32,000 bases of DNA from Candidatus Syntropharchaeum caldarium (GTDB taxonomy: Archaea; Halobacteriota; Syntropharchaeia; Syntropharchaeales; Syntropharchaeaceae), in contig LYOS01000007.1 in assembly GCA_001766815.1 (NCBI GenBank), positions 13,393 to 45,392 on the forward strand. Direction: 5' to 3'. The first letter of the stretch is position 1. The number at the start of each line of letters is the position of its first letter. Below the pieces are notes generated by a model. It did not search any database and had not been told where the DNA came from. It saw only the letters and a program-made list of their open reading frames with translations. This document shows positions 7,482 through 31,366 of the stretch, one piece after another. A program made the position numbers and the translations under genes.

Positions 7482-7530
7482 GTGGAACACACCATTAAAA
7501 TCATAGTCGTTTACAGGAGGAAAGTTGTTA

Positions 7531-7603
7531 GGCCGAGGTCGGGATTCGAACCCGAGTCAAAGGATCCACAGTCCTTTAGCATAACCACTAACCCACCCCG
7601 GCC
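7531..7603 (-). tRNA. tRNA-His (anticodon GTG) with genome-encoded G-1
   Basis: Reverse complement: GGCCGGGGTGGGTTAGTGGTTATGCTAAAGGACTGTGGATCCTTTGACTCGGGTTCGAATCCCGACCTCGGCC. It has an 8-bp acceptor stem including G-1:C73, an anticodon stem AAGGA/TCCTT with loop CTGTGGA, and a T arm TCGGG-TTCGAAT-CCCGA. CCA is not encoded. The D stem is imperfect. Confidence 0.9.
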
Positions 7604-7763: not shown

Positions 7764-10358
7764 GTGCAGAATATAGCAAAAGAGTACGATCACAGGCGTA
7801 TTGAAGCGAAAGGCATCGAGAATTGGGATGACAGCCTTTATTATTTTGATTGGGAGTCTGATAAAGCACCTTACATTATCGATACGCCTCCACCATATCC
7901 AACAGGTAGCTTTCACATAGGAAATGCACTCAACTGGTGTTATATCGATTTTATAGCGAGATACAGGCGTATGCAGGGGTATAATGTGATGTTTCCTCAG
8001 GGATGGGACTGTCATGGCCTTCCGACAGAGGTGAAGGTTGAGGAGACACACGAGATAACAAAGAGTGGGCTTGATAGGATTGAGTTCAGAAGACTGTGCT
8101 GTGAATTGACCTCATCGAACATCGAGAAGATGCGGAATACGATGAAATCACTCGGTCTCTCGATCGACTGGTCGAATGAGTACATCACAATGGATCCTGC
8201 TTACTACAGAAAGACGCAGGTTTCCTTTGTCAGGATGTACGAGAAAGGGCTTATCTATCGTGATGATCATCCAGTGAACTGGTGTCCGAGATGCAAGACT
8301 GCGATCGCATTTGCAGAGGTTGAGTATGACACGAGAGAGACATCTTTGAATTACATACACTTTGAAGGCGTTGATATCGCAACCACAAGACCAGAACTGA
8401 TCCCTGCATGTGTTGCTGTTGCTGTTAACCCTGATGATGAGCGGTTCACGGATCTTATTGGCAAAGAGGTTGGCGTTCCAATATTTGATTACCACGTGCC
8501 AGTTATAGCAGATCCAGAAGTTGATTCTACGTTTGGTACAGGAATTGTTATGATCTGTACGTTTGGTGATAAACAGGATGTCAGGTGGTGGAAAGAGCAT
8601 TCATTGCCCCTTAGAAGGGCTATTGATCGGGATGGAGTGATGACCGAGATTGCGGGTAGATACGCCGGGATGAAGATCAAAGAGACAAGGGATGCTATAA
8701 TAGAAGACCTCAAAAGACTTGGTTTGCTCTATGAGAGCGAGCGAATAGAGCAGAATGTTGGGCTTTGCTGGCGGTGCAAGACACCGATTGAGATACTCTC
8801 CGAACGTCAGTGGTTTGTCAGGATTGAACAGGAGAAGGTGCTTGATGCAGCGGCAAAGATCGAGTGGATACCAGATTACATGATAATCAGGCTCAAAAAC
8901 TGGGTTGAGTCGATGGAATGGGACTGGTGTATTTCAAGGCAGCGTCTATTTGCAACACCGATACCAGTCTGGTACTGTAAAGCGTGTGGTAAAGCGCTTG
9001 TAGCAAGAGAGGCTGAACTCCCGGTTGATCCAACAATTGATTTGCCTGAAGAAACATGTTCGTGCGGATCTAATGAGTTTGAGGGTGAAACAGATGTTCT
9101 TGATACATGGATGGACAGTTCAATCTCTGCGCTTGTTGTTGGGGGCTGGCTTGAAGATAAATTTATTTTTCCGACACAGTTAAGACCGCAGGGGCACGAT
9201 ATCATCCGTACATGGGCTTTTTACACAATTTTGCGATCGATCGCGCTCACAGACAAGATCCCATGGGAGACGATTGTTATAAATGGTATGGTGCTTGGTG
9301 AGGATGGGCACAAGATGAGTAAATCAAGGAATAACATCACAGCACCTGAAGCAGTGATGGAAAAGTATGGTGCCGATGCCTTCAGGCAGTGGGCCGCAAT
9401 CGGAGGATCAACAGGCTCTGATGTGATGTTCAGGTGGAAGGATATTGTTGCAGCCTCGCGGTTTCTACAGAAACTGTGGAGCATTCTCAGATTCTCATTG
9501 ATCCACATCGATAAAGAAAAAGCCCCTTACAAAAAACCAGAGCAACTTCGTGCAACTGACAGATGGCTTCTTACACGACTCAACATGCTGATTGAGACTG
9601 TCACCGCGAAGATGGATGCCTACAGCTTCGATGAGGCGATGAAGGAGATACGTGGATTTACGTGGAACATACTTGCAGATGACTACATCGAGCTTGTGAA
9701 GTCAAGACTTTACTCAGCAAACTCTGATGGAAGCGAATCTGCAATCTACACGCTTTACACTACAATGGAAACATTATCAAGGCTCATCGCACCTTTTATG
9801 CCATTCTTTGCCGAGGAGATGCACTCATATCTCGCTGCGGATAGTGTACACGCAAAAGATTGGCCAGTTGTCAACTATGACCTGATCGATGAGCGATCGC
9901 TTGAGGAGGGCGAGCTTATACGAAAGATCGTTGAAGCGGTTCGAAGGTACAAATCAGAGAATAAAATTCCCCTCAACGCACCACTTAAAAATATTGAAAT
10001 TTACACGACCCTCGATCTGGACGTTGATGATATAAAAGGAACCTTGAACAGTGAGGTTGAGATTGTAAGTCCCACAACAACACTCAACATGAAGGCGGTC
10101 TCAATCAAGCCAAGGATGGATGTGATCGGTCCTATGTACAGGAAGCAGGCTGGAGAGATTGCAAAGCGGTTGCGTGAACTTGACGCCGAAGAGGTCGAAC
10201 AACTCATATCAGAAGGAAAGAAGGTCGAGATTGAGGTTGCTGGAGATCACATAGTGCTCGACGATTCAAGTTTTGAGATTGAACATGCTTTTGAATCCAG
10301 AGGAGAGCGGGTCGATCTTTTGGAGGTTTCTGGGATGAAGATTGCGGTTGCAAGGTGA
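7764..10358 (+). CDS. valS: Valyl-tRNA synthetase (archaeal type)
   Basis: Class I aaRS: [21 protein letters not shown] (HIGH-region), [23 protein letters not shown] (HKMSKSRNN). The 864-aa length fits ValRS rather than IleRS or LeuRS. GTG start; no in-frame ATG nearby. Confidence 0.9.
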
Positions 10359-10530
10359 GAGGCGAAACAGGTCACAAAGAAGTGCAGGTAAAATTTTCAA
10401 AATCCTCCTTATTTTTATTCGCAATCCTTATAATCATTTACATTATAAATGGTATGTTATGAGAGCGATCACCACTGGTGGTGAATGTGCGAATAAGCGT
10501 TGTAAAATCGAAATCTGAGGTCGAGTAATT

Positions 10531-11874
10531 ATGTCAAAAAGAATTGTGATAATCGGGGGTGGTGATGCAGGAACTTATACACTGGAAGCGATCATGAAAA
10601 GAAAGGAGGATGTGGCGATAACTCTTCTAAAGAAGGACAGATATGGTTCTGTATCTATCTGCGGACTGCCTTTTGCTTTGCAGGGGATTTATCCGCTAAA
10701 AGATATTGAGCTACAGGAACCAGAATTCTTTCAGAGCAGGGGCATCGACTATCGAACCTTAACCGAGGTCACAGAAATTAATTTAGAAGCGAATAGTGTG
10801 ACGATTCAGACAGGAGAGGAGTTAGAATACGATTATCTTGTGATAGCAACAGGAAGCAGACCGTTTATCCCATCAATTCCGGGTGTGGAGCTTGAGGGAG
10901 TTTATACGGTAAAAGATATGGAGGATGGCGAGAGGATTGAGGTCGCTATGAATGATCCAGGTGTGAAAAACGCTGTTGTTATCGGTGCTGGAACAATCGC
11001 GCTTCAGGTTGCAGTTGCATTCTCTAAAAATAATATTAAGACCACGGTTACAAAACCCCGCCCTCTGATCCTTCGTTCAATGTTGGATCCTGATATCGCC
11101 TCAAAAGTTCAGAAAAAACTTGAAGAGCTGGAAATAAGGTTTATACTTGGAAAGGAGACGGTAGCTATAAAGGGCGATGGAGATGTTAAGTCAGTTTTGA
11201 TAGGGGATACTGAGGTTCCTGCTGATATAGTGGTGGCATGCGCGGGAATGCGTCCGAATGTTGATCTTGCGAAAGAAGCTGGGATAGAGATAGGTGAGAG
11301 TGGAGGAATCGCGACAGATCCATTTTTACATGTTAAAAAGGGAAGAGGATATATAGACAATGTATATGCCGCCGGCGATTGTGTGGAGGTCATAGATGCA
11401 ATTACACACCGCCCGAGGTTGAGCATGCTTGCCTCCACGTGTGTAACACAGGCTAAGGTAATATCCGATAACATATTTGGTGATAATTCATCTTTTGATC
11501 CAGTTTTAAGTCCAACCGTCGCCAATATCGCAGGTCTTCAGGTGGGATCTGTTGGGATCACCTCAGAGACCGCAAAAAGATACGGCATGAAGGTTATAAC
11601 CGGCAAAAAGGAGAAGCCTACAAAGCCGAGATATTATCCTGGAAGAAAGTCCATGCTGATGAAATTACTCTTCGATGCCTACTCTGAGCGGTTGGTAGGT
11701 GCACAGATAATCTCGGAGGATCAGGTTGCAGACCGTATAGATGAACTCAGCATCGCGATAAGGTCTGGCATGAGGGCCAGGGAATTACGTATGATGGAGA
11801 AGAGCTTTGACCCCTCTGTTGCATTGCACAGGGATGTGATGGCCGATGCGGCAGAGGATGCTCTAAATGTATAA
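10531..11874 (+). CDS. FAD-dependent pyridine nucleotide-disulfide oxidoreductase (NADH oxidase / CoA-disulfide reductase family)
   Basis: N-terminal Rossmann motif IVIIGGGDAGT, single redox-Cys motif SICGLPFAL typical of the Nox/CoADR family, a second dinucleotide fold VVIGAGTIALQ, and AAGDC near the C-terminal third. Confidence 0.8.
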   Translation: MSKRIVIIGGGDAGTYTLEAIMKRKEDVAITLLKKDRYGSVSICGLPFALQGIYPLKDIELQEPEFFQSRGIDYRTLTEVTEINLEANSVTIQTGEELEYDYLVIATGSRPFIPSIPGVELEGVYTVKDMEDGERIEVAMNDPGVKNAVVIGAGTIALQVAVAFSKNNIKTTVTKPRPLILRSMLDPDIASKVQKKLEELEIRFILGKETVAIKGDGDVKSVLIGDTEVPADIVVACAGMRPNVDLAKEAGIEIGESGGIATDPFLHVKKGRGYIDNVYAAGDCVEVIDAITHRPRLSMLASTCVTQAKVISDNIFGDNSSFDPVLSPTVANIAGLQVGSVGITSETAKRYGMKVITGKKEKPTKPRYYPGRKSMLMKLLFDAYSERLVGAQIISEDQVADRIDELSIAIRSGMRARELRMMEKSFDPSVALHRDVMADAAEDALNV

Positions 11875-17100: not shown

Positions 17101-17706
17101 ATGAGCGGTGAACCGAGATTCAGGGATCTTATAGAGGAGCTGGTGAGTAAGGATTCACTTTCAATAAGCGCTATTCAGCGGCAACTTGAAAAAAAGGGCG
17201 TTAAAGAGCATCGATTAATAGTTACGGGCTATCTCAGGGCACTCAGAGACATGGGAATTGTTGAAGAACGAAAAGTTCCGCCTTCAAAGGTCTATTCACT
17301 AATATCGAAAGAAGAAAAGTCAGAGACAGATTTTTATAGTTATATAAAACAGGAGATCGAAGATCTTGATGTGGATGCAGAGGTTAAGCTTGCTGTTGCA
17401 GTTCTTCTCATAAATACACTATTCCATCGCCCCTGTTTCAGAATCGAACTTAAACGCCTGGGTACATCGTACGTTGAGAGTGAATTTGTTCGGAAGGTAG
17501 ATGGAAGTGCATATATCCGTGCAATCAACCAGAATAAGCTCGCAATATCAGATGATGAACCTGCATTTGAGTGTGTCACCGAGCTTCTCTCTACAGAGGT
17601 TGTTGATCTGATGATCAGGGTCCTATCCAACGTAGTGAAGGAGGTTGTAGATGTCAGCGGGCTGTATGAAAAATATCCTCAGAAGACGCTTGAATTTAAT
17701 CTCTGA
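17101..17706 (+). CDS. Hypothetical protein with probable N-terminal winged-helix domain
   Basis: An ORF with clean codon structure. SISAIQRQLEKKGVKEHRLIVTGYLRALRDMGIVEE looks wHTH-like. I recognise no family. Confidence 0.4.
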   Translation: MSGEPRFRDLIEELVSKDSLSISAIQRQLEKKGVKEHRLIVTGYLRALRDMGIVEERKVPPSKVYSLISKEEKSETDFYSYIKQEIEDLDVDAEVKLAVAVLLINTLFHRPCFRIELKRLGTSYVESEFVRKVDGSAYIRAINQNKLAISDDEPAFECVTELLSTEVVDLMIRVLSNVVKEVVDVSGLYEKYPQKTLEFNL

Positions 17707-18172
17707 GTTGCTCTTCGGTTCTCTGGTGATCGATCGAGAGGTCTGTCGCGATATCATTTCTTTTCTGGCCTTTAAGGTGATATTCCATCTGTTTTCTCGT
17801 TCCGCGTCTGACGAGAAAACCCTCCCGACAGAGCCGTGCAAGGTATGTTGATACAGTGCTCAGAGGAATATCGGTGGCGTAATTCAATTCATAACCTAAC
17901 TTCACATCTGATGATGTGAACCACCTGTTTTCAAATTCAAACTTTAAAAAAAGCCTTAAACGCTCTTTGAGTGTCATAGAAGATTCATTAACATCTTTTT
18001 CGCTATGAAGATAGGGACTCGATGAAGATCCGCCAATATGGTGCACGGGTATTCCAGCATCCTGCATAAATTTGATCAACTTTGCAGCTGTTTTTGGTGA
18101 TTTAACATCGTTTTCCGTTTCCACTGAGGTTTTAAATCCATCATCATCGATAATCTCAAGGTGGATCTTCAT
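17696..18172 (-). CDS. Hypothetical protein with C-terminal wHTH (putative transcription regulator)
   Basis: LSTVSTYLARLCREGFLVRRGTRKQMEYHL is wHTH-like. The track ORF extends to 18268; the internal ATG at 18172 (MKIHLEIIDDDG) is an equally plausible start. The gene is divergent from the MtaA-like gene. Confidence 0.45.
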   Translation of the reverse strand: MKIHLEIIDDDGFKTSVETENDVKSPKTAAKLIKFMQDAGIPVHHIGGSSSSPYLHSEKDVNESSMTLKERLRLFLKFEFENRWFTSSDVKLGYELNYATDIPLSTVSTYLARLCREGFLVRRGTRKQMEYHLKGQKRNDIATDLSIDHQRTEEQLRD

Positions 18173-18461
18173 CGCAGTCCCTCGCTGGCATCCATCTATC
18201 CCCTCAGATTGGTTAATCACACATTGTGAAGCTGTTTTCTGAATGCCAGTTAAATTGATATACGTCATACTATTTAAACTTTTAGTGGAAATAAAGGTTT
18301 TAACACGTTATTCACTTAGTGAAAGTTTGTGTTCATGATCTATACTACTTAAAAGTGCTGCATTACCCATTTTATTTCTTTCACAGGATGACTTAAAGAA
18401 AAGATCGTGACGCTTAAATAGTAATAGGTAGAATGAGGGGTAGATAGATGGAGGAATCATT

Positions 18462-19520: not shown

Positions 19521-19598
19521 GCTTGTACCTTCTGTTTACCTGTGCAGGAATTAAGAAGATGGCTTGCGCAGGTCTTTTATTTATTTTATTATTCAATA

Positions 19599-20282
19599 AT
19601 GATCAGCACACACGAAATCGGACGGAAGACACATATAGTGGACTGTAGAGAGACACCTGGCTTTGGCATCGGTGGTGGGCTTGCACAGAAGGGGACGCTC
19701 TCTGAGGCAGAGAACCCTGAGATTGTTGTGGTTGCCATGAGCCCAATTGCACGACATGTAACAAAGCCAGTCTGTGAGATCACTTATGGAATCAGAGAAG
19801 CTGGGATACAGACAAGCGTACTCGTTCTTGAAGCGGGCATGGGGCTTCCAAGGGATGCACCTGGTGGTGCAAGTATGGGAATCTGTGGGATTACACCAAA
19901 GGAAGTTGCACAGATCAATCGACATAAGCTTGTTCTGCTGCATCTTGGAAATATACCATCCCATTTTATCTACAAGACAAGAACGTTCCTCAAGAACGTA
20001 ACGATTCCTGCAATCGTAATCTGTCAGGCACCTGTAGAATTCAAACAGTTTGCTGATATCAAGATCCGTGTTCGGGACTTCCCGCAGGACGATGCCGTAA
20101 CAAAGGGTGAACTCGTGGATGTTGTAACAGGTGTGATCAGGGGTGAGACCGTCCCTGCTGTCAAGCTTGAGGAGATTATACGTAAGGTTAAATACTGGTA
20201 CTCTGTTTACTACCCAGCAGATTACGCCACCAGGAGATGGGATGCTGTTGGCAGGGCATGTCGCAGAGTAGAGGTATGTTGA
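19599..20282 (+). CDS. mcrC: McrC homolog (methyl-coenzyme M reductase operon protein C / activation-complex component), outside an mcr operon here
   Basis: HIVDCRETPGFGIGGGLAQKGT, VVVAMSPIARHVTKPVCEITYGIREAGIQTSVLVLEAG and RHKLVLLHLGN closely follow the McrC sequences I remember. The ATG at 19599 is preferred over the track start at 19542. Confidence 0.85.
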   Translation: MISTHEIGRKTHIVDCRETPGFGIGGGLAQKGTLSEAENPEIVVVAMSPIARHVTKPVCEITYGIREAGIQTSVLVLEAGMGLPRDAPGGASMGICGITPKEVAQINRHKLVLLHLGNIPSHFIYKTRTFLKNVTIPAIVICQAPVEFKQFADIKIRVRDFPQDDAVTKGELVDVVTGVIRGETVPAVKLEEIIRKVKYWYSVYYPADYATRRWDAVGRACRRVEVC

Positions 20283-22699: not shown

Positions 22700-23608
22700 A
22701 TGAATTTTAAAGCCTGGATCAGGATCTCAAAGCCATTCAAGCATCAGACGATGATATATCCATTCCTCGTTGGAACTGCGATTGCATACCACGTGCTTGG
22801 CACGATCGACCCTCTGATCTTTGTGGTCTCCTTTTTCGCTGTTATCGTCATGGTTGAGGCTGCATACATCTCAAACGACTATTTTGACTATGATACCGAT
22901 CTTGGGAATCCATCAAAGTTTACAGGTGGGAGCAAGGTACTCGTCGAGGGCGAACTCCAGAAAGAGGTTGTTTTGAAGGTTACAGCAGGTTTAATTGCTT
23001 TTGCCTTCATACTGGGGCTCATCATACAGTTTGGCCTGAAGACTGGTCCTTTTTCAATTCCAATCGGTGCGTTCGGGATGTTTCTTGCATACTCATACTC
23101 AGGAAAACCTCTCAGACTCTCATATCATGGTCTTGGCGAGATTACGCTTGCGTTCAACAATGCATGGACGCCGATCTTTGCAGGCTATTACCTCCAGGTT
23201 CACAGACCGGATTTACTTCCAAGCATCGTTGCAATTCCCTACATACTCGGTGTATTCTCCCAGAAACTTCTTCGAGAGATCCCTGATCTTGAATATGACA
23301 TGAAAGCGGGAAGGAGAAATCTTGCGGTGATACTTGGAAAAGAGCATGCGGGAAGACTATATCTCGCATCATTAATTCTCACAATCATATCATTACTCCT
23401 TATGATCCTCTATCTACAGAATCTTTATCCCTTTACGCTTCTTCTGATAATACCTGCGAGCATGCTTCTTCCTAATCTCTGGTATGGGATCAGGAGAGGA
23501 TGGAAAGGGTTAAAAGATCTTGAGCGTATGAATGATCTTGGATTTAAAGCGATGTTTGCGATACCTCTCGTCTTCACGCTGACATTTATTCTTGCAGGAG
23601 TGATTTGA
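22700..23608 (+). CDS. UbiA-family aromatic prenyltransferase (MenA/MqnP-like)
   Basis: Polytopic membrane protein with the first Asp-rich motif NDYFDYDTD and a second motif region EIPDLEYDMKAGRRNLAV. It starts 2 nt after the cofH stop. Confidence 0.75.
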   Translation: MNFKAWIRISKPFKHQTMIYPFLVGTAIAYHVLGTIDPLIFVVSFFAVIVMVEAAYISNDYFDYDTDLGNPSKFTGGSKVLVEGELQKEVVLKVTAGLIAFAFILGLIIQFGLKTGPFSIPIGAFGMFLAYSYSGKPLRLSYHGLGEITLAFNNAWTPIFAGYYLQVHRPDLLPSIVAIPYILGVFSQKLLREIPDLEYDMKAGRRNLAVILGKEHAGRLYLASLILTIISLLLMILYLQNLYPFTLLLIIPASMLLPNLWYGIRRGWKGLKDLERMNDLGFKAMFAIPLVFTLTFILAGVI

Positions 23609-24645
23609 TGATCGAAAGGCTATTTGATAACGATACAGTCGGAACGGGGTGCTTCAGTTACCTTCCAGCAGAGTTTGTGTGGGCGGTTACAAAACGTTGC
23701 AACTTAAGCTGCTTACACTGCTCGATCGAGGAGTCTGATGAAGGAGAGCTCACAACAGAGGAGGGAAAGCTTCTGATCGAGGATGCAGCAGCACTTGGGG
23801 ATGTCAAATTTGCGTTAACAGGGGGCGAGCCTCTACTGCGTAAAGACATTTACGAGCTCATAAGCTATGCCTCAGGTTTTGATATGCAGATCGTGATGGC
23901 GACAAATGCAACGCTTATAACCCGAGAAGTTGCAGAAAAACTTGTCGATGCAGGGCTTGAGCGTTTTGGGGTGAGCATCGATGGTGTCGGCGATGCACAT
24001 GATAAAATCAGGGGGGTTAAGGGTGCGTTTGAGCGCACAATGAAGGGGCTTGAGGCTGCAAAGGATGCAGGCCTGAGCTTTCAGTTTCACTCGATGGTCA
24101 CAGCATACAACCTTGATGAGATCCCGAAGATAATCGATCTTGCAGAAGAGCTTGGTGCATACAGGATCTACTTTGTTTACTTAATCCCGATGGGAAAGGC
24201 CCGTGAGATCCCGGAGGCGTGTATCGGGGTTGAAGAGAACAAAAAGTTTTTTGAGTACATCTATGAGCGCCAACATTCATCCAGCGTCTGGCTCAAACCG
24301 ATCTGTAACCCGCAGTACTGGCTGTACTTGAAGTCTAAGGAGAATGACTCATTTAAGATGACAGGATGTACCGCAGGGATTACGAGATTTCACATCTTCC
24401 CGAACGGTGATGTTGCACCCTGTGCTTATCTGCCTGTTAAGGCGGGGAGTTTGAAGGAGAAGAGATTTGGTGAGATTTTAGAGACGAGTGAGGTTTTCAG
24501 GAAGCTTCGCAATCGGGAGCTAAATGGTAATTGTGGTGTGTGTATCCATCGAGGGGAGTGCGGGGGGTGCAGATCAAGGGCTTATGGTTTTTCAGGGGAT
24601 TATTTAGGGGAGGATCCGGTGTGTGGGTGGTGGGAGGAGGGGTGA
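23608..24645 (+). CDS. Radical SAM protein with C-terminal SPASM domain (AhbD/NirJ-like architecture; specific function unassigned)
   Basis: CNLSCLHC radical SAM cluster motif, and C-terminal Cys-rich CTAG...CAY...GNCGVCIHRGECGGCRSRAY...DPVCGW (SPASM). The ATG overlaps the ubiA stop (TGATG). Confidence 0.8.
   Translation: MIERLFDNDTVGTGCFSYLPAEFVWAVTKRCNLSCLHCSIEESDEGELTTEEGKLLIEDAAALGDVKFALTGGEPLLRKDIYELISYASGFDMQIVMATNATLITREVAEKLVDAGLERFGVSIDGVGDAHDKIRGVKGAFERTMKGLEAAKDAGLSFQFHSMVTAYNLDEIPKIIDLAEELGAYRIYFVYLIPMGKAREIPEACIGVEENKKFFEYIYERQHSSSVWLKPICNPQYWLYLKSKENDSFKMTGCTAGITRFHIFPNGDVAPCAYLPVKAGSLKEKRFGEILETSEVFRKLRNRELNGNCGVCIHRGECGGCRSRAYGFSGDYLGEDPVCGWWEEG
24520..24645 (+). repeat. 3' end of the radical SAM/SPASM gene: copy 1 of a triplicated att-like segment
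   Basis: Aligns without indels to 26196-26321 (18 mismatches in 126 nt by my count), with the same frame and the stop at the same position. The core TGCAGATCAAGGGCTTAT lies at 24568-24585. Confidence 0.8.
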
Positions 24646-24646
24646 A

Positions 24647-24651
24647 TTTTT
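24647..24651 (+). terminator. Oligo-T tract right after the radical SAM gene stop
   Basis: TGA at 24643-24645 is followed by a then ttttt, after which an AT-rich spacer begins. Confidence 0.3.
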
Positions 24652-24758
24652 ATAAGCAGTCTACTATAGTAAAGTCAAAAAGTATATATTCAAAAATATA
24701 ATAGATACACAATGTCAAAGAAGGGTCCCAGGACGCTTAAAGGGGTGATAAGTCGAAT

Positions 24759-25214
24759 ATGAAAACCACTGCAACTCTTATAATAATAGCAATCATGACA
24801 GTTACAATCTTTACAGGATGTATTACAGTCGTTACACCCCCATTACCTCAAGCATCACCAAGTGAGGTTGTTGAAACTTTCGCTTCCTGGTATGGGGACG
24901 AATATCTCGAAGGGTGTTATAGTTTGATGTCGACAGAATACAGGAATTCAACAGATTTGAAGACTTTTAAAGAAAGAATAAATCAGTGCGAAAAAGGAGG
25001 GTTTCATCACAAGTTTGTCAGAGTAAAAAGTGAGAAAATAAATGGAGACTTTGCATCAGTAAGGATTGTGTATAGGAGAAAAGGACCTTTCTTTGATCTT
25101 TTTTGCATCATTGAAGACTTGATTGAGGATCCAAAAACTAAAACCGTGAATTTGGTTAAAGAAGAGGATGGATGGAAACTCACGGAACTGCACTGCGAAC
25201 TTAGAGGTAAATGA
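24759..25214 (+). CDS. Putative secreted lipoprotein, small NTF2-like/DUF4878-like
   Basis: Signal peptide with a lipobox-like FTGC (MKTTATLIIIAIMTVTIFTGCITVV), followed by a ~125-aa soluble domain. Confidence 0.5.
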   Translation: MKTTATLIIIAIMTVTIFTGCITVVTPPLPQASPSEVVETFASWYGDEYLEGCYSLMSTEYRNSTDLKTFKERINQCEKGGFHHKFVRVKSEKINGDFASVRIVYRRKGPFFDLFCIIEDLIEDPKTKTVNLVKEEDGWKLTELHCELRGK

Positions 25215-25374
25215 GAGATACAATGGTTAAAGTGGTGATTTAGCTTACAACTTAGTTTCTCCACGAAATTCGCCTTCTAATACTCCAAAACCTCACTAAT
25301 CCAAAAGATCCAACACCCACCAATCCCCAAAAAAGAATAACCACAATCCCTCTTCACGGCTTCCAGACCTTGAG

Positions 25375-25845
25375 CTATTCTACTCTTTCAAAATCGGCGT
25401 CGTTTGTTGCGATGTTTGTGATTCCATAGGCTTTACAACAAGCAGCATGTAAAGCATCCCGTGGAAACAGGTGGCATTCCCTTGAGAGATCCAGTGCAAT
25501 CTTTGAAATCGAATAATCTATGCTCACAACCTTCAGATTGCCTAAGGAAGTAAGATAATCCAGATACTCGTAAAATTTTGTTACTGGCTCGAGGCATTTA
25601 TCTAAAATTTTTGATATAGCCTGCTTAACAGCCATGGTTTCCTTAATTCCTGTTAGTTCTTTCCCTTTTTGAATCATCAGAACATAAGAAACCTCGTCAA
25701 TTATGAGCGGGGAGACGAAACCCTCCCTTTTCCCATCCTCTACTTCTTCCAAAAATCTCATGCAATTATCGCCATATTTAGGATGGTTCGTCAGAACGTA
25801 TGCAAATACGTTAGCATCTATGAATATCGAATTCATACTCCTCAT
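25375..25845 (-). CDS. vapC: PIN-domain toxin (VapC family)
   Basis: IFIDANVF (first acidic residue), IIDEVSY, DALHAA and ATNDADFERV make up the typical PIN acidic quartet layout. An antitoxin-like gene overlaps directly upstream. Confidence 0.85.
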   Translation of the reverse strand: MRSMNSIFIDANVFAYVLTNHPKYGDNCMRFLEEVEDGKREGFVSPLIIDEVSYVLMIQKGKELTGIKETMAVKQAISKILDKCLEPVTKFYEYLDYLTSLGNLKVVSIDYSISKIALDLSRECHLFPRDALHAACCKAYGITNIATNDADFERVE

Positions 25846-25999
25846 GAACCTCCTCCAACCCCTCCCAGCACTTCACGATCCCAAGCATTCTTCTTGTCAT
25901 ACCACTTCGTACCTCAATCTCAACCACCTCTCCCTCCTTCAAATCCAGCTTCTCAAGCGGCTTCAATACGTTGTTCTCATACACGGCTTTTATGATCAT
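25811..25999 (-). CDS. AF2212-like (PF01954-type) antitoxin, VapB-equivalent
   Basis: MIIKAVYENNVLKPLEKLDLKEGEVVEIEV is the hallmark of the AF2212/DUF104 antitoxin family. ATG at 25999 is preferred over TTG at 26011. The gene overlaps the vapC start. Confidence 0.75.
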   Translation of the reverse strand: MIIKAVYENNVLKPLEKLDLKEGEVVEIEVRSGMTRRMLGIVKCWEGLEEVHEEYEFDIHRC

Positions 26000-26005
26000 G
26001 GAGGA

Positions 26006-26024
26006 CACCAATCGTTAATTGGTG
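26006..26024. promoter_or_regulatory. Perfect inverted repeat CACCAAT-n5-ATTGGTG between an A/T box and the antitoxin start (candidate TA autoregulation operator)
   Basis: Arms at 26006-26012 and 26018-24 are exact reverse complements. The A/T-rich tract gattaaaaaaata at 26031-26043 lies upstream in the minus-strand sense. Confidence 0.35.
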
Positions 26025-26179
26025 GTTGGTGATTAAAAAAATACCTTTGATGAAGCTGGTAAACCCACTCCAAAATGGACTGGAGTGTAAGCGAAAGCTC
26101 ATCTATTTTTTCACCAACCACCATAAATACACCCCCAGCCTCGTAAGTTAAAGAGATAATTAAGCTGTTCTGGGATGGA

Positions 26180-26321
26180 TGGTAAGAGGAGGAACCTAAA
26201 CGGCAACTGTGGCGCGTGTATCCATCGAGAGGAGTGCGGAGGATGCAGGTCAAGGGCTTATGGGTTTTCAGGGGATTATCTGGGGGAGGATCCGGTGTGT
26301 GGGTGGTTTGAGGTTGAATGA
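26180..26321 (+). pseudogene. Orphan 3' end fragment of a radical SAM/SPASM gene (copy 2 of the att-like segment)
   Basis: Translates in frame as ..RRNLNGNCGACIHREECGGCRSRAYGFSGDYLGEDPVCGWFEVE*, against RNRELNGNCGVCIHRGECGGCRSRAYGFSGDYLGEDPVCGWWEEG* in the intact gene. No upstream body of the gene is present. Confidence 0.8.
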
Positions 26322-26340
26322 CCGATCCATCAGGACTTAG

Positions 26341-26349
26341 CTTTATATC
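26341..26349 (+). promoter_or_regulatory. TATA-like box (ctttatatc) ~28 nt upstream of the DUF488-1 ATG; implies a leaderless or very short-leader transcript
   Basis: The sequence and its spacing to the ATG at 26374. No SD-like motif lies in between. Confidence 0.4.
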
Positions 26350-26373
26350 AGAAGAGCGCAAACAACATTTAAG

Positions 26374-26880
26374 ATGAAAAACGGCTCACCACCCCAGCTC
26401 ACTATCTACACAATCGGACACAGCAACATCGAACTTGAGGATTTTTTGAGCTTGCTGGAGGGTATTGAGGTGGTTGTGGATGTAAGGAGCGTTCCATTCA
26501 GTAAATACGCTCCTCAGTTCAATCTAAAAAATGTAAAAAGTGCACTCGAATCGATCGGTATTGAGTACAAATATCTTGGAAATGTCCTTGGAGGAAGACC
26601 AAAGGATGAGGACTGTTATGAGAATGGAAAAGTAGTTTACGAAAATATAATGAGAAAAGAGTGGTATAGAAAAGGTATCTCGGCATTGATTGAGCTTGCA
26701 GCGAAGAAGAAAGTGGCGATCATGTGTAGCGAAGAGGATCCTTACCGGTGTCACAGGCATCATCTGATCTCACAGAGCTTACTTAAAGAGGGAATGGAAA
26801 TCTTTCATATAAGGGGTGATGGAAGAAAGGAGAATGTGGAGAAGCCGAAAAAGCGGACAGTTCAACTTACGCTGGTATGA
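26374..26880 (+). CDS. DUF488 family protein (paralog 1)
   Basis: LTIYTIGHSN, VVVDVRSVPFSKYAPQF, YKYLGNVLGG and the C-terminal MCSEEDPYRCHRHHL (the C-x-E...CHR hallmark of DUF488). Confidence 0.85.
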   Translation: MKNGSPPQLTIYTIGHSNIELEDFLSLLEGIEVVVDVRSVPFSKYAPQFNLKNVKSALESIGIEYKYLGNVLGGRPKDEDCYENGKVVYENIMRKEWYRKGISALIELAAKKKVAIMCSEEDPYRCHRHHLISQSLLKEGMEIFHIRGDGRKENVEKPKKRTVQLTLV

Positions 26881-27311
26881 AGATATACACGATCGGATTT
26901 ACAAGAAAGAGTGCGAAGGAGTTCTTTGAGATACTCAAAAGAAACGATGTCAAGCAGGTAGTGGATATAAGGCTCAATAACACATCTCAGCTTGCTGGGT
27001 TCACAAAGAAAAACGATCTGGCGTATTTTTTAAAGGAGCTATGCGGAATAGAGTATTACCATTTTAAATTTCTTGCCCCAACAAAGGAGATCAGAGATCG
27101 ATACATCGAGAGCAAGGATTGGGATGTTTATGTTGAAGAATATCTCAGGCTACTTGAGGAGAGAGGCGTTATTGATAAACTTGAGAGGTCGTTCTTTGAG
27201 ATGAGAACATGCCTTTTATGTAGCGAGCCAACAGCAGAACACTGCCACAGGAGATTATTGGCTGAATATCTCAAGAAACAGTGGGGGGATGTTGAGGTGG
27301 TGCATTTGTGA
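26877..27311 (+). CDS. DUF488 family protein (paralog 2, highly diverged from paralog 1)
   Basis: MKIYTIGFT, VVDIRLNNTSQLAGF and LLCSEPTAEHCHRRLL. The ATG overlaps the upstream stop (ATGA at 26877-26880). Confidence 0.8.
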   Translation: MKIYTIGFTRKSAKEFFEILKRNDVKQVVDIRLNNTSQLAGFTKKNDLAYFLKELCGIEYYHFKFLAPTKEIRDRYIESKDWDVYVEEYLRLLEERGVIDKLERSFFEMRTCLLCSEPTAEHCHRRLLAEYLKKQWGDVEVVHL

Positions 27312-30010
27312 AGAAGAGGGTGGTTATTACTGATTTAAGCAGAATGGAAGGTGATAGGGTATGTATATTCGGCATCGACGAAGAAAGAAGACCAATAAGA
27401 CCCGTAATTTCTTATCGAGGGGTAAGAGAAAGTGATCTCTTTGATGAAGAAGGTAACCAGATTATAAAGCCATTTGCAGAGGTAGAGTTTGATTTTCTCC
27501 ATCCTTTGCCTAAACCACCGCATACAGAAGATTGGGAGATAAACACGATATACAAGCCAAGATTGATAAAAAATCTCTCAGAGGATGAAAGAAAGGTGTT
27601 TTTAGAGGAAGTACTGGATGGATCGGTTAAAGAGATCTTTGGAGCGGTGATTCATGAAAATCGTTACATAAATCCATGGGAAGGGGAGAGATCACTCGGA
27701 ACGGTGAAGATAAAAGAGGTTTTGGATGTTAATTATTCGATGAAAGAAGAAGGGAAATACAAATACAGGCTAAAATTTTTAGATGTAGCCGGAGATGCTT
27801 ATGACCTACCGGTCACGGATTGTGCATTCAGGAGGTATTGTGATCATGAGAGAATTCAAAATCAGAAGAGCATGGGACTTATCGGGGCTGAGCTGCAGAG
27901 GAGATTTAACCAGAGCAAAGTTTATCTTCGTGTGGGTCTTGCGAGACCTTTTCCTGAAAAGTACTACAGGTGTTATCTACAGATCTCTGGTTTATACACT
28001 TTCCCGGATTATAAGGGTGAGGATGGAGATTGTGGAAATGAAGTCGATATGGAATCAGCGCATCAGGCACTGCAAAAATACTTTGGCTATACATCATTTC
28101 TTCCCCTCCAGAAAGACATTATCAGGGATGTTCTCCTGAAAAACGATATTTTTGTGCTGATGCCAACTGGCGGTGGTAAATCTCTGTGTTATCAGTTACC
28201 TGCACTTCTTCTGGATGGCGTAACGGTGGTTATCTCACCACTCATTGCATTGATGAAGGATCAGGTGGATGATTTGAGGGCAAACGGGATTGCTGCAGCC
28301 TGCATCAACAGTTCACTGAGTCCCGATGAGATACAGGCGGTAAAAACAAAATTGCTGAAGAATAGAATCAAGATTCTTTATGTGGCTCCCGAAAGAATGA
28401 TGCAGCCTGGTTTTTTATCATTTTTACAGCGATTGAATATCGGCCCCATCGCGGTTGATGAAGCTCACTGTATCTCTGAGTGGGGGCATGATTTCAGGCC
28501 TGAGTATCGCCGATTGAGCCTGCTCAAAGAAATCTTTCCTCAAACACCTTTAATCGCATTGACAGCGACCGCTATTACTGCTGTACAGAGAGATATTATA
28601 AGAGAGTTAAGGTTAAACGATCCGAAGATATATAAAGCGAGTTTTAACCGAAAAAACTTGTTCTATCAGGTCAAACCAAAATATGATGGCTATTCCCAAT
28701 TGATCCAGTATTTAGAGAATCACAAAGGTGATTCAGGGATAATTTATTGTCAAAGCCGTAAATCTGCCGATGAGCTGGCAAATAAACTTCAAAAAGAGAG
28801 ATATCGCGTTTTACCCTATCATGCTGGGTTGAGTTCTGATTTGAGGAACGAGACGCAGAATAAATTTGTTAAAGATGACTTTGAGATAATCGTGGCAACA
28901 ATAGCCTTCGGGATGGGGATAGATAAATCGAATATCCGTTTTGTGGTCCATTATGACCTCCCAAAGAATCTTGAAAGTTATTATCAGGAAACGGGCAGGG
29001 CTGGAAGGGACGGGGATAAGGCAGATTGCATTCTCTTTTTCAGCCGTGGAGATAAGGCAAAAATAGAGTACTTTATCGAGCAGAAATCGGAGGAAAGAGA
29101 GAGGCGAATTGCGTATAAGAAGTTGCACGATATGGTTGAGTTTTGTGAGAGTCAGGGCTGTCGCAGGAAGATCCTGTTGAAGTACTTTGGGGAAGCCTAT
29201 GATAAAACGAACTGTGGAAGTTGTGATAATTGCATAGAACCGAAAGAAAAGATCGATGGAACCAACATCGCTCAAAAGATCATATTATGTGTCTCCCAAG
29301 TTAAAGAAAGATTTGGCGTGAACTATATCGCTGATGTTCTGTGCGGCTCAAAGAGTCAAAAGATAATCCGCAATCGACATGATATCTTATCAATTTATGG
29401 TACTGGCAGGGAATACTCAAGAAAACGGTGGCAGACTTTTACCAGGGAACTAATTCAACTTGGGTTTCTGAGATTGGAAGGTGATAGATACCCAATCGTT
29501 AAGCTTACACAGAAGAGTCAGGATATTTTATCTGGGGAAGAGCAAGTTTTACTGACCAGGCCGGTAGAAGAAGTTAGGATAACAGAAAAATCTGCTGACG
29601 AGGACTTTGATCATGATTTATTTGAAATGTTGAGAGGTTTGAGGAAGAGGCTCGCTGATGCAGAAGGTATGCCACCGTATATCATCTTTCATGATTCAAG
29701 TTTGAAGGCGATGGCAAGATATTTTCCCCAGACTCTATCCGACTTTCGGAAGATAGATGGTGTCGGTGAAAGCAAGCTGGAGAAGTATGGGGAAATATTC
29801 GTGAAAGAGATTGCGGATTACTGTCAAGATTATAGAATCGAGCATATACGAAAAGTTCATCCTCGAGCGTATGAACCATGGACAAAAGATGAAGATGAAA
29901 GACTAATCAGAGAATACAGGTCTGGTAAAAGTATAGAAGAGCTTATGGAACTATTTGGAAGACAAAGCGGTGGTATTAAGTCAAGATTGAAGAAACTGGG
30001 GTTACATTGA
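27308..30010 (+). CDS. recQ: RecQ-family DNA helicase with an extra ~245-aa N-terminal domain of unknown type and a C-terminal HTH tail
   Basis: The helicase core runs from aa ~250: FGYTSFLPLQ, MPTGGGKSLCYQLPA, VVISPLIALMKDQ, DEAHCISEWGHDFRPEY, LTATA, FGMGIDKSNIRFVVHYDLP, YYQETGRAGRDG. It also has a Zn module (CESQGCRR...CGSCDNC), an RQC region, HRDC (YIIFHDSSLKAMARYFPQTLSDFRKIDGVGESKLEKYG), and the tail WTKDEDERLIREYRSGKSIEELMELFGRQSGGIKSRLKKLGL. The GTG start overlaps the upstream stop (GTGA at 27308-27311). Confidence 0.9.
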   Translation: MKKRVVITDLSRMEGDRVCIFGIDEERRPIRPVISYRGVRESDLFDEEGNQIIKPFAEVEFDFLHPLPKPPHTEDWEINTIYKPRLIKNLSEDERKVFLEEVLDGSVKEIFGAVIHENRYINPWEGERSLGTVKIKEVLDVNYSMKEEGKYKYRLKFLDVAGDAYDLPVTDCAFRRYCDHERIQNQKSMGLIGAELQRRFNQSKVYLRVGLARPFPEKYYRCYLQISGLYTFPDYKGEDGDCGNEVDMESAHQALQKYFGYTSFLPLQKDIIRDVLLKNDIFVLMPTGGGKSLCYQLPALLLDGVTVVISPLIALMKDQVDDLRANGIAAACINSSLSPDEIQAVKTKLLKNRIKILYVAPERMMQPGFLSFLQRLNIGPIAVDEAHCISEWGHDFRPEYRRLSLLKEIFPQTPLIALTATAITAVQRDIIRELRLNDPKIYKASFNRKNLFYQVKPKYDGYSQLIQYLENHKGDSGIIYCQSRKSADELANKLQKERYRVLPYHAGLSSDLRNETQNKFVKDDFEIIVATIAFGMGIDKSNIRFVVHYDLPKNLESYYQETGRAGRDGDKADCILFFSRGDKAKIEYFIEQKSEERERRIAYKKLHDMVEFCESQGCRRKILLKYFGEAYDKTNCGSCDNCIEPKEKIDGTNIAQKIILCVSQVKERFGVNYIADVLCGSKSQKIIRNRHDILSIYGTGREYSRKRWQTFTRELIQLGFLRLEGDRYPIVKLTQKSQDILSGEEQVLLTRPVEEVRITEKSADEDFDHDLFEMLRGLRKRLADAEGMPPYIIFHDSSLKAMARYFPQTLSDFRKIDGVGESKLEKYGEIFVKEIADYCQDYRIEHIRKVHPRAYEPWTKDEDERLIREYRSGKSIEELMELFGRQSGGIKSRLKKLGLH

Positions 30011-30039
30011 GGTGTTACAGATTTCTGGACATACTTTCC

Positions 30040-30186
30040 AGATCACAGAGTGTGAGGGAAGAGCTCTTCAAGAACTTGAGAGGCGGAGGCTTAACGGAAA
30101 CTATAGTGTGTGTAAGAACCGTTGTAAGCACGGAGGCTGCAGGTCAAGGGCTTATACGAGGTAGTATCTGGTTTGAGGTAGGGTAG
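30040..30186 (+). pseudogene. Second, more decayed orphan 3' end fragment of a radical SAM/SPASM gene (copy 3 of the att-like segment)
   Basis: Frame 0 reads ..ALQELERRRLNGNYSVCKNRCKHGGCRSRAYTR* (stop at 30162-30164). The 18-nt core TGCAGGTCAAGGGCTTAT (30138-30155) is identical to 26244-26261. The tail tggtttgaggt (30169-30179) is identical to 26304-26314. About 45 nt present in copy 2 between core and tail is missing. Confidence 0.65.
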
Positions 30187-30427
30187 AGATTATGTGGTAG
30201 TTGTGGTTAGTTTTATTAAAGAAGGTATTCCAAAACATTTAGATAAGATAAGGTCACCTTAATATACGGATCATAAAGGGAAAAACAGAGGTGGGGGTAA
30301 ATCAAAATAGCTCTACGTACCAGATCCCTCCAGAAAAGATCATCGCAAGATGGACTATATGGCCTAAATCGACTCCCTCCGACCCCCCTCACAAAGTATA
30401 TCTGCATGCACTTTGAATATAACAGGG

Positions 30428-31366
30428 ATGAAATTTTGCGAGCGGTGCAGAAAGAAAGAGGCAGATGTGGTTCTAAGTACTGTGCGTTTCTGTGAACCCT
30501 GCTTCATTGAGTATTTTGAAAGGCAGGTACAACGCGCGATTGACGGTGAAAAACTTGGCGCGGAGATGTTCTCACGAGATAGCCGCATACTAATGGCGGT
30601 CTCAGGAGGCAAGGACAGCATGACGCTCTGGAACGTCCTGAACGACCTCGGCTATGAGACCTGTGGGCTTCACATCGATCTCAACATCGACGAATACTCA
30701 GAGGTTTCGAGGAGAGTCGTTGAGAACTTTGCCGCTTCAAAAAGCCTCGACCTGATAGTGGTGGACTTAAGGAAAGAATACGGGAAAAGTCTGATGGAGC
30801 TGGCGATGAGGGATGCGTGTTCTGCATGCGGCTTGGTGAAGCGTTATTTGATGAATAAAGTCGCTTATGAGAAGGGTTTTTCGGTGCTTGCCACCGGGCA
30901 CACGCTTGATGATGAGTGTGTCACACTTCTTGGAAATTTGACGCGGTGGAACCTGGAATTTCTGCAGCGCCAGTATCCCATCTTAGAAAGCACACACCCG
31001 AAGCTTGTGCGCAAAGTAAAGCCGCTGTTCAGGATTTCTGACGAAGAAACGGCGGCATACGCAAGGATAAAGCGGTTGGAGTTTGTAAGAGAGAAGTGCC
31101 CGCTGGCAAGCGGCGCAACCTCACTCAGCTACAAGAAAGTGCTGAACGAGCTTGAGCAGCGGCACCCCAGCTTGAAAAAAGCTTTTTACCTCGGATTTTT
31201 GAAGAATAAATCGCTGTTCGGCAAGGAAGAAAATTTCGAGCTCAAGACGTGTGAATCCTGCGGCATGCCTACGGCAAACGTCGGACTTTGCGCATTCTGC
31301 AAGCTTTTAGAACGTCCGAAGCGGCGGCACGATGAGAAAAGCAAAGTTAAACCCTTGTCCATCTAA
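30428..31366 (+). CDS. PP-loop tRNA thiolation ATPase (TtuA/NcsA/TtcA family)
   Basis: N-terminal Zn-ribbon CERC...CEPC, PP-loop AVSGGKDS, CSACG, ATGHTLDDE and a C-terminal Zn-ribbon CESCG...CAFC. ATG at 30428 is preferred over TTG at 30413. Confidence 0.8.
   Translation: MKFCERCRKKEADVVLSTVRFCEPCFIEYFERQVQRAIDGEKLGAEMFSRDSRILMAVSGGKDSMTLWNVLNDLGYETCGLHIDLNIDEYSEVSRRVVENFAASKSLDLIVVDLRKEYGKSLMELAMRDACSACGLVKRYLMNKVAYEKGFSVLATGHTLDDECVTLLGNLTRWNLEFLQRQYPILESTHPKLVRKVKPLFRISDEETAAYARIKRLEFVREKCPLASGATSLSYKKVLNELEQRHPSLKKAFYLGFLKNKSLFGKEENFELKTCESCGMPTANVGLCAFCKLLERPKRRHDEKSKVKPLSI

Follow-up and report, generated by a model that had tools for sequence, protein, structure and literature searches.

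The closest described counterpart of the locus analyzed here is PDC-M45, a phage-defense candidate (PDC) in the PADLOC catalogue, which comprises a cassette of three protein families with 68 RefSeq instances and was proposed by "guilt-by-embedding" (Payne et al., bioRxiv 10.1101/2024.01.29.577857, supplementary file 8). Most PDCs are unvalidated (PMC12988326). A cold-seep study tested eight of them, M45 not being among these, and a literature search returned no paper mentioning PDC-M45. PDC-M19 appears to be a two-gene relative. Here, we analyze a 32,000-nucleotide stretch of DNA from Candidatus Syntropharchaeum caldarium (assembly GCA_001766815.1, contig LYOS01000007.1, positions 13,393 to 45,392 of the forward strand), called the window below, which encodes two DUF488 proteins, DUF488-A and DUF488-B, directly followed by a RecQ helicase carrying an N-terminal DuOB domain. 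This trio and PDC-M45 appear to share the same three protein families, and both form compact cassettes. DUF488-B of the window is 100% identical to a protein attributed to Candidatus Syntrophoarchaeum caldarius. The window locus, whose genes are arranged in the order DUF488-A, DUF488-B and DuOB, differs in carrying DuOB as part of a fusion with a full RecQ and in this DuOB being too divergent for the PADLOC model, while PDC-M45 is a guilt-by-embedding prediction only.

DUF488 proteins, among them Escherichia coli YeaO, represent a large family found across prokaryotes and also in some viruses. We know of no DUF488 protein whose activity has been measured and, to our knowledge, few defense systems are known in Archaea. 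A RecQ-family motor within a conflict-type operon, as found in the window, is also a feature of two other systems, namely the 7-deazaguanine system Dpd with its DpdF component and PsyrTA with its PsyrT component. The PADLOC models for both DpdF and PsyrT match the RecQ helicase core of the window protein (PsyrT, 1.6e-108), and none of the partner genes (DpdA-K and PsyrA) was found in the window. Assignment as a Dpd system was rejected based on the NCBIfam DpdF model, which yields 193 bits against a cut-off of 550, the PADLOC DpdF models not being diagnostic. It should be noted that an ordinary RecQ matches two of these PADLOC models, PDLC02861 and PDLC02864, from end to end (E 3e-238, profile positions 13-608 of 611), so that any RecQ would be labelled DpdF, resulting in false defense calls.

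A conserved cassette with RecQ as an optional partner

Profile searches against PADLOC matched DUF488-A to PDC-M45B (PDLC04657; 2.1e-52, profile positions 5-161 of 204) and DUF488-B to PDC-M45C (PDLC04658; 2e-60, profile positions 1-144 of 145). The remaining profile, PDC-M45A, matches DuOB proteins of other loci (L083 at 1e-12, L082 at 3e-10 and L028 at 1.5e-7), with 5 of 22 DuOBs being weakly matched. Judged from these profiles, the cassette probably corresponds to the unvalidated candidate PDC-M45 and is not a new kind of system. The first-pass annotation, made from the DNA sequence alone, had presented the trio as an undescribed system, a description that is superseded by the Pfam identity of the RecQ extension (DuOB) and of DUF488-B (DUF488-N3a) as well as by the likely match to PDC-M45.

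A scan of GTDB, using one genome per species, identified 105 DuOB relatives in 185,579 species. DuOB is thus rare and patchy, being found in about 0.06% of GTDB species. After filtering, 79 loci were kept, 12 of them archaeal and the remainder mostly from Chloroflexota, and their open reading frames (ORFs) were called and then searched with profiles. The neighborhood of DuOB is not cut by a contig end, and therefore assessable, in 72 of these loci. DUF488-A followed by DUF488-B is located directly upstream of DuOB on the same strand in 63 of the 72, and DUF488 adjoins DuOB in 70 if divergent pairs (3 loci), downstream pairs (2 loci) and single DUF488 genes (2 loci) are included; the other 2 assessable loci have no DUF488 beside DuOB. 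The genes for DUF488-B and DuOB overlap by 4 nucleotides in 13 loci and are separated by no more than 30 nucleotides in 41 of 62. A fourth regular partner did not emerge: all-against-all clustering of ORFs within 6 kb found no other cluster in more than 9 loci, and 126 flanking genes were distributed over 175 Pfam families, each seen at most 3 times. When DuOB alone was used as query, standalone proteins with a length of about 250 amino acids (aa) made up the majority of the family. Similarly, in an exhaustive DuOB profile search, which recovered 1425 clusters from 1.84 billion representatives, the best 150 are almost all standalone.

RecQ is a recurrent optional partner of this cassette, and the link arose independently several times. 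It is fused to DuOB in 5 of the 79 loci, encoded by a separate neighboring gene in 7 and absent from about 85%. Archaeal DuOB-RecQ fusions are found in Syntrophoarchaeum, Methanosarcinales Met12, Methanolliviera and others (L003, L008, L014 and L093). In Chloroflexia loci (L080 and L082-L085), the trio is instead directly followed by a separate gene for a TPR-RecQ of 970-1080 aa, and an Altiarchaeales locus (L018, 7079-11305) encodes a DuOB-RQC-HRDC-HEAT fusion without helicase core, with the gene for a UvrD-type helicase carrying a Zn-ribbon next in line. In L092 (6392-9624), a DUF488 pair with a fragmented A-type gene is coupled to a RecQ without DuOB, the upstream flank containing a large superfamily 1 helicase and an MTES_1575 protein, while L001 and L017 carry DuOB-RecQ without DUF488. 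Close relatives of the window locus vary as well. L007 (1-1900), at 95% nucleotide identity to the window, encodes a standalone DuOB and lacks RecQ, and in L003 from Ca. Syntrophoarchaeum GoM_oil (8001-10879) RecQ is split within HRDC into ORFs of 745 aa and 149 aa, which is seen in three independent assemblies.

Because the A-B-DuOB arrangement is conserved and RecQ is rare overall and absent or split in near relatives, the core of the system consists of DUF488-A, DUF488-B and DuOB. The window locus represents a RecQ-fused version of a small, horizontally mobile cassette of three genes that is patchily distributed in archaea and Chloroflexota. Only about 15% of loci contain RecQ, around which the first-pass annotation had organized the module. 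The proposed co-occurrence of DUF488 pairs with RecQ was borne out as a real functional link in the form of fusions, adjacent genes and a DUF488-DUF488-RecQ arrangement lacking DuOB, and it is restricted to a minority of loci. A chance neighborhood of an ordinary RecQ and two unrelated DUF488 genes is refuted by this survey of gene neighborhoods and has a practically negligible probability: although RecQs 68-75% identical to that of the window stand alone in related archaea, the same arrangement is seen in dozens of distant genomes, where codons overlap, genes are fused and the order of A and B is fixed.

The same variants bear on a toxin–antitoxin (TA) or abortive-infection logic, in which the RecQ-type helicase or DuOB would be toxic, as PsyrT is in PsyrTA, and would be restrained by the DUF488 proteins. 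The match of the helicase core to PsyrT, the tight coupling of the genes and the TA modules adjoining the cassette would all fit such an arrangement. The match to ordinary RecQ, however, is much stronger and full-length, and most cassettes do not contain any helicase. Further, the existence of DuOB-RecQ without DUF488 in L001 and L017 indicates that the fusion is not obligatorily toxic. We therefore consider this logic very improbable.

The DUF488 pair and the DuOB-RecQ protein

Both small proteins belong to DUF488 (PF04343; gathering score 22.2), with 79.2 bits for DUF488-A and 88.4 bits for DUF488-B, and the family hallmarks named in the first-pass annotation could be located in each. In DUF488-A these are TIGHS (13-17), VDVR (35-38), CSEED (118-122) and CHRHH (126-130); in DUF488-B they are TIGFT (5-9), VDIR (29-32), CLLCSE (112-117) and CHRR (123-126). 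DUF488-B also exceeds the gathering score of 27 for PF22751 (DUF488-N3a) with 39.2 bits, whereas DUF488-A stays below it at 23.0 bits and is thus assigned to a different DUF488 clade. The two proteins are 29% identical, with A preceding B in 68 of 73 loci and a distinct set of conserved motifs characterizing each type. A natural A-B fusion exists in L006 as a single protein of 320 aa. DUF488-A and DUF488-B are therefore a genuine hetero-pair of paralogues, in agreement with the divergence pointed out by the first-pass annotation, and they are likely active as a heterodimer.

The AlphaFold2 model of DUF488-B (predicted local distance difference test, pLDDT, 89.6) consists of a three-layer α/β domain. 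The invariant C115-x-E117 closes the strand formed by residues 111-115, and C123-H124-R125 opens a helix (124-136). Based on this model, with conserved residues mapped onto its secondary structure and not onto three-dimensional positions, the Cys...CHR motif of DUF488-B would occupy the topological position of the P-loop of cysteine phosphatases (strand-loop-helix). Similar to the predicted DUF488-B fold, cysteine phosphatases of the protein tyrosine phosphatase (PTP)/dual-specificity type are three-layer α/β proteins with a cysteine at the end of a strand, a loop and an arginine at the N-terminus of a helix. They differ in having a C-x5-R P-loop where DUF488 has C-x7-C-H-R (or C-x9-R), and in that no significant match in the PDB connects them. 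Foldseek searches against viral models returned phage DUF488 proteins with template modeling (TM) scores of 0.57-0.68, followed by dual-specificity and Tyr phosphatases of giant viruses (probability 0.82-0.96, TM about 0.34-0.44).

Two results weigh against a phosphatase-like fold. No PDB entry was matched by DUF488-B at E≤0.001 in Foldseek searches, the best E being 0.01, and Pfam files DUF488 in the SGNH clan, so that the fold assignment is not settled. The low-ranked PDB fold matches include tetrapyrrole/diphthine-type methylase domains, PRL-1, PTP-2, RNA 5'-phosphatase, PNK 3'-phosphatase and RapZ. A sequence search of the PDB found no solved structure related to either DUF488 or DuOB. Pfam further distinguishes "active" and "inactive" DUF488-N3 subclades, and DUF488-B falls into the one named "Active DUF488-N3 subclade", a name implying that an enzyme had already been predicted.

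The third gene of the trio encodes a protein in which, in line with the first-pass annotation, a catalytically complete RecQ carries two additional domains. The N-terminal extension is the Pfam family DuOB (PF22557, "dual OB-containing domain"), scoring 64.2 bits against a gathering score of 27. The family is unusually rigid in its invariant residues, which are PPHTEDW (70-76), RSLGT (128-132, with RS at 128-129), TD (170-171) and RxGLxR (208-213). The AlphaFold2 model (pLDDT 91.5) shows two OB barrels, and Foldseek searches against the PDB yielded POT1, TEBP-α, RPA and the HIN-200 proteins IFI16 and p204 (probability 0.98, E 3e-4 to 6e-4), with low TM scores of 0.25-0.36, 9-12% identity and no detected sequence relationship. 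These proteins bind single-stranded DNA (ssDNA), DNA ends or junctions, or foreign double-stranded DNA (dsDNA), and they share the tandem OB barrels of the predicted DuOB fold. Unlike them, DuOB possesses PPHTEDW as a motif of its own with invariant His, Glu, Asp and Trp residues, which could serve in the recognition of a terminal group or even in catalysis.

These predicted folds also allow for a nucleotide- or RNA-directed system, in which DUF488 would act on nucleotide- or NAD-derived molecules or on RNA termini, an activity that has been proposed for proteins related to the phosphatase-like fold, DuOB would bind an RNA or oligonucleotide signal and RecQ would be a passenger. OB folds bind RNA as well as DNA, RNA 5'-phosphatase, PNK 3'-phosphatase and RapZ are among the low-ranked DUF488 fold matches and RecQ is missing from most loci. 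In addition, an archaeal ParB-CTPase-fold protein fused to DUF488-HTH binds CTP (PMC12704722). However, all helicase and nucleic-acid modules recruited to the cassette are of DNA type (RecQ, RQC, HRDC and UvrD), and the best structural matches of DuOB are binders of ssDNA or telomere ends and of dsDNA. We regard an RNA- or nucleotide-directed role as improbable.

The RecQ part scores 782 bits with the recQ equivalog model TIGR01389 (cut-off 640), and the Pfam domains DEAD, Helicase_C, RecQ_Zn_bind, RQC and HRDC all exceed their gathering scores. All named motifs are present, including GGGKS (288-292), DEAH (384-387), QETGRAGRDG (560-569) and the Zn cysteines (618-642). The helicase motifs, Zn module, RQC and HRDC are thus shared with canonical bacterial RecQ of the E. 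coli type, from which the window protein differs by its N-terminal DuOB, its short HTH_40-like tail, its translational coupling to two DUF488 genes and the dispensability of the RecQ part in near relatives, where it is absent (L007) or split (L003). Its tail of about 65 aa (836-900) did not match any Pfam family at E<0.01. The corresponding DNA (29846-30010) aligns at 84% to the end of an HTH_40 ORF in L003, and the same tail is found directly after DuOB in L010, L012, L013, L062 and L063. Based on these alignments, it is what is left, in shortened form, of an HTH_40 domain, which in related RecQs is located behind HRDC.

The closest fused homologue (P0001) is 99% identical, and other fused homologues exist. 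The RecQ of the window is 57-63% identical to that of Brocadia and Nitrospirota and 68-75% identical to RecQs of ANME and Methanosarcinales, which stand alone in ordinary contexts and are not associated with DuOB. RecQ is therefore not exotic in this part of the Archaea, although the first-pass annotation had placed it outside the usual archaeal repair set. A further relative is located in L088/L089 (6001-8655), where a RecQ 73% identical to the helicase core of the window is fused to an N-terminal CbiC-like domain inside a cobalamin-biosynthesis operon; this fusion is possibly a gene-call artefact.

Locus organization and the surrounding insertion hotspot

The three genes lie on the same strand and form one operon, as the first-pass annotation had considered very likely, with stop and start codons overlapping at ATGA (26877-26880) between DUF488-A and DUF488-B and at GTGA (27308-27311) between DUF488-B and DuOB-RecQ (Table 1). 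The GTG start codon of DuOB-RecQ is supported by homologues aligning from residue 1 (MKKRVVITDL). The TATA-like box noted upstream is present, and the surrounding TAG(C/T)TTTATAT is invariant 5' of DUF488-A in the window, L003, L090 and L093, that is in four archaeal loci. A scan for sigma-70 promoters and terminators, which is not relevant to an archaeon, gave fewer matches than shuffled sequences.

Table 1 Features of the DUF488-A, DUF488-B and DuOB-RecQ locus in the window
Feature	Position	Strand	Description
DUF488-A	26374..26880	+	168 aa, A-type paralogue; TIGHS, VDVR, LGGRP, CSEED...CHRHH; PF04343
DUF488-B	26877..27311	+	144 aa, B-type paralogue (Pfam DUF488-N3a); TIGFT, VDIR, LAPT, CLLCSE...CHRR; PF04343 and PF22751
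DuOB-RecQ fusion gene	27308..30010	+	900 aa, GTG start
DuOB domain	27314..27991	+	aa 3-228; PF22557; predicted tandem OB fold
RecQ helicase core	28103..29014	+	DEAD (aa 266-426), Helicase_C (aa 463-569)
RecQ Zn-binding, RQC and HRDC	29048..29812	+	Zn-binding (aa 581-642), RQC (aa 645-755), HRDC (aa 769-835); Pfam
C-terminal tail, HTH-like	29813..30007	+	aa 836-900; shortened HTH_40 remnant
TATA-like promoter element CTTTATATC	26341..26349	+	25-33 nucleotides 5' of the DUF488-A start codon; putative promoter
Border repeat, copy 1	24509..24645	+	Functional 3' end of radical-SAM/SPASM gene 23605-24645; reference copy
Border repeat, copy 2	26185..26316	+	87% identical to true 3' end; left border of trio cassette
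Border repeat, copy 3, degenerate	30079..30178	+	73%; right border of trio cassette

The trio is part of an islet (24646-30178) with a GC content of 41.3%, compared with 45.9% upstream and 48.7% downstream, so that the AT-rich islet of the first-pass annotation is real if modest. The adjoining VapBC pair it had named was likewise confirmed and consists of a PIN gene (25375-25845, minus strand) and an AF2212-like antitoxin gene (25811-26011, minus strand). The same cassette as VapBC also encodes a putative lipoprotein of 151 aa (24759-25214) without Pfam or PADLOC match that is kept in L003 (62% aa identity) and L090 (88% aa identity). An integration hotspot, also part of the initial description, is supported by the last 50-130 nucleotides of the radical-SAM/SPASM gene being present three times as direct copies. 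A core of 22 nucleotides is identical in copies 1 and 2, the chance expectation being 0 matches. The three copies bound two cassettes, one containing the lipoprotein and VapBC and the other the trio, with the most distal copy being the most decayed. This arrangement is compatible with repeated insertion at the 3' end of the radical-SAM gene, in which each event would have brought a replacement end. Two listed ORFs, 25996-26361 (minus strand) and 30012-30164 (plus strand), were rejected as genes, as they run through decayed copies of the radical-SAM 3' end. The translation of the latter still contains a recognizable SPASM-domain fragment (...LNGN..C...GGCRSRAY).

Related loci share these borders. 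Border repeats are located at 5245-5373, 5973-6044 and 6963-7012 in L003 and at about 1717-1954 and 4385-4512 in L090, and copy 3 is conserved in L007, where it directly follows DuOB, and in L090, where it follows RecQ. L003 has a transglutaminase cassette in place of VapBC. L090, a strain variant, encodes a 99% identical trio bounded by the same repeat with a different downstream flank. In Methanosarcinales Met12 (L093), PIN and HicAB modules follow the trio. Screening of the ORFs of 24646-31366 and of the gene tables of L003, L090 (22 kb) and L093 revealed no integrase domain. Rfam and tRNA scans of the window identified only tRNA-His (7530-7603), which leaves the insertions without a tRNA target. 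A repeat-bounded serial cassette array without visible integrase represents a separate small puzzle concerning how archaeal hotspots are built.

In L090 (4721-8974; L091, 2927-7180), VapBC and the trio are separated by a further cassette with genes for a HerA-like ATPase (PADLOC HerA 7e-30, mad8 9e-21), a 535-aa protein without family match and a Dam-type (MethyltransfD12) methyltransferase. This cassette may represent an uncharacterized HerA-associated restriction-modification-like (R-M-like) system. It was found in no other locus of the survey and is not a regular partner of the trio. The genes upstream of the trio are housekeeping genes, specifically futalosine-type menaquinone, URO-D, amidase, tRNA synthetase and pilus genes. 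Among them is an McrC-like (MCR_C) gene (19542-20282) surrounded by URO-D, amidase, MqnA-like, CofH/MqnC-like, UbiA and radical-SAM/SPASM genes, and this MCR_C-to-menaquinone arrangement is syntenic with Ca. Syntrophoarchaeum GoM_oil. Between the DUF1015 and URO-D genes, two ORFs without Pfam match (201 aa, plus strand; 190 aa, minus strand) occupy a second patch of low GC content (17101-18268, 40-42%) that may be another small insertion.

Surveillance of foreign DNA or repair of DNA ends

We hypothesize that the locus is a PDC-M45-type cassette whose DuOB-RecQ and DUF488 proteins act on DNA termini, most likely in the surveillance of foreign or aberrant DNA, a reading held with slightly less than even confidence. 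The three proteins would be produced from one transcript and would act as one complex, with RecQ covalently attached to DuOB at this locus. DuOB, through its predicted POT1/RPA/HIN-like fold and PPHTEDW loop, would recognize ssDNA or a DNA end or junction, and the fused RecQ motor would unwind in the 3'->5' direction from this entry point. The DUF488-A/B heterodimer may then act on the DNA terminus exposed in this way through phosphate or sugar-phosphate chemistry. The biological role is the least certain part of this proposal, with surveillance of foreign or aberrant DNA being most likely and DNA-end repair a close second.

A role in conflict would be consistent with the PADLOC embedding signal and with the patchy distribution over two domains of life. 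It is further suggested by the location in a hotspot with TA and R-M-like cassettes and by the presence/absence polymorphism of parts of the system in near-identical genomes. Several results nevertheless weigh against it. The immediate neighbors in the 79 loci are mostly ordinary metabolic and housekeeping genes, and defense-type neighbors are scattered (mad2 four times, mad3 twice, MzaA twice and a few methyltransferases), these being raw counts without background rate. The DuOB of the window did not match any PADLOC model even at E≤1, and the system would hence probably be missed by PADLOC at this locus. Searches of IMG/VR, PLSDB and GenBank phages (INPHARED) found no DuOB, and a virus- or plasmid-borne origin is therefore unsupported in those collections. 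B-type DUF488 proteins are 60-83% identical across archaeal orders, which represents strong conservation. A comparison of two Syntrophoarchaeum species showed 78-83% identity for the trio and, in the same range, 75-87% for its housekeeping flanks. The trio is found at the same position in both; it looks like a stable resident and not like an arms-race gene. The first-pass annotation had regarded a universal syntenic core position in related genomes as the sign of housekeeping repair, and this applies in part, namely within Syntrophoarchaeum, where the trio has diverged in step with its flanks. Our literature search yielded no paper on the cassette, no DUF488 activity and no experiment on any family member. 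DUF488 has reportedly been placed in a RapZ-C/DUF488/DUF4326 clade with a predicted function in DNA-end processing.

Much of this evidence can also be explained by an accessory module for DNA repair or replication restart. Here, DuOB would be an SSB/RPA-like loader of RecQ at gaps, stalled forks and broken ends, and the DUF488 pair would heal termini, where it might take off a 3'-phosphate or a different blocking group, to the benefit of the cell's own genome, invaders not being the target. The canonical RecQ with intact RQC and HRDC, the predicted resemblance of the tandem-OB fold to RPA and POT1, the co-divergence with housekeeping flanks, the high sequence conservation, the mostly non-defense neighbors and the absence of DuOB from viruses and plasmids would all be consistent with such a module. 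On the other hand, its extremely patchy distribution, its position as a cassette in an insertion hotspot next to TA and R-M-like cassettes and the loss or splitting of RecQ in near relatives that keep the other genes argue against repair, as does the identification of the core through guilt-by-embedding inside known defense systems. Repair is somewhat unlikely in our estimate. A conflict or defense role is rated somewhat above it, the two being close.

Within the preferred surveillance reading, a more specific and rather doubtful proposal is that DUF488-A/B constitutes a new effector modifying nucleic-acid termini, with a cysteine-phosphatase-like fold as its scaffold. Guided by DuOB as a POT1/RPA-like end sensor and, in this lineage, driven by the fused RecQ, it would chemically mark or disable the ends or ssDNA intermediates of invading replicons. 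If true, this would be an immune mechanism without characterized precedent and would assign a function to the widespread DUF488 family for the first time. Ready-made controls exist as natural variants that contain or lack RecQ or DuOB, some of them in near-identical genomes. Together with the RecQ link, they allow the functions of DUF488 and DuOB to be tested directly. The cassette places DUF488 in a biochemical setting that consists of an obligate A/B pair, a tandem-OB DNA binder and, in several independent lineages, a RecQ-type helicase, and "function unknown" is thereby narrowed down to a few activities on DNA termini that can be tested.

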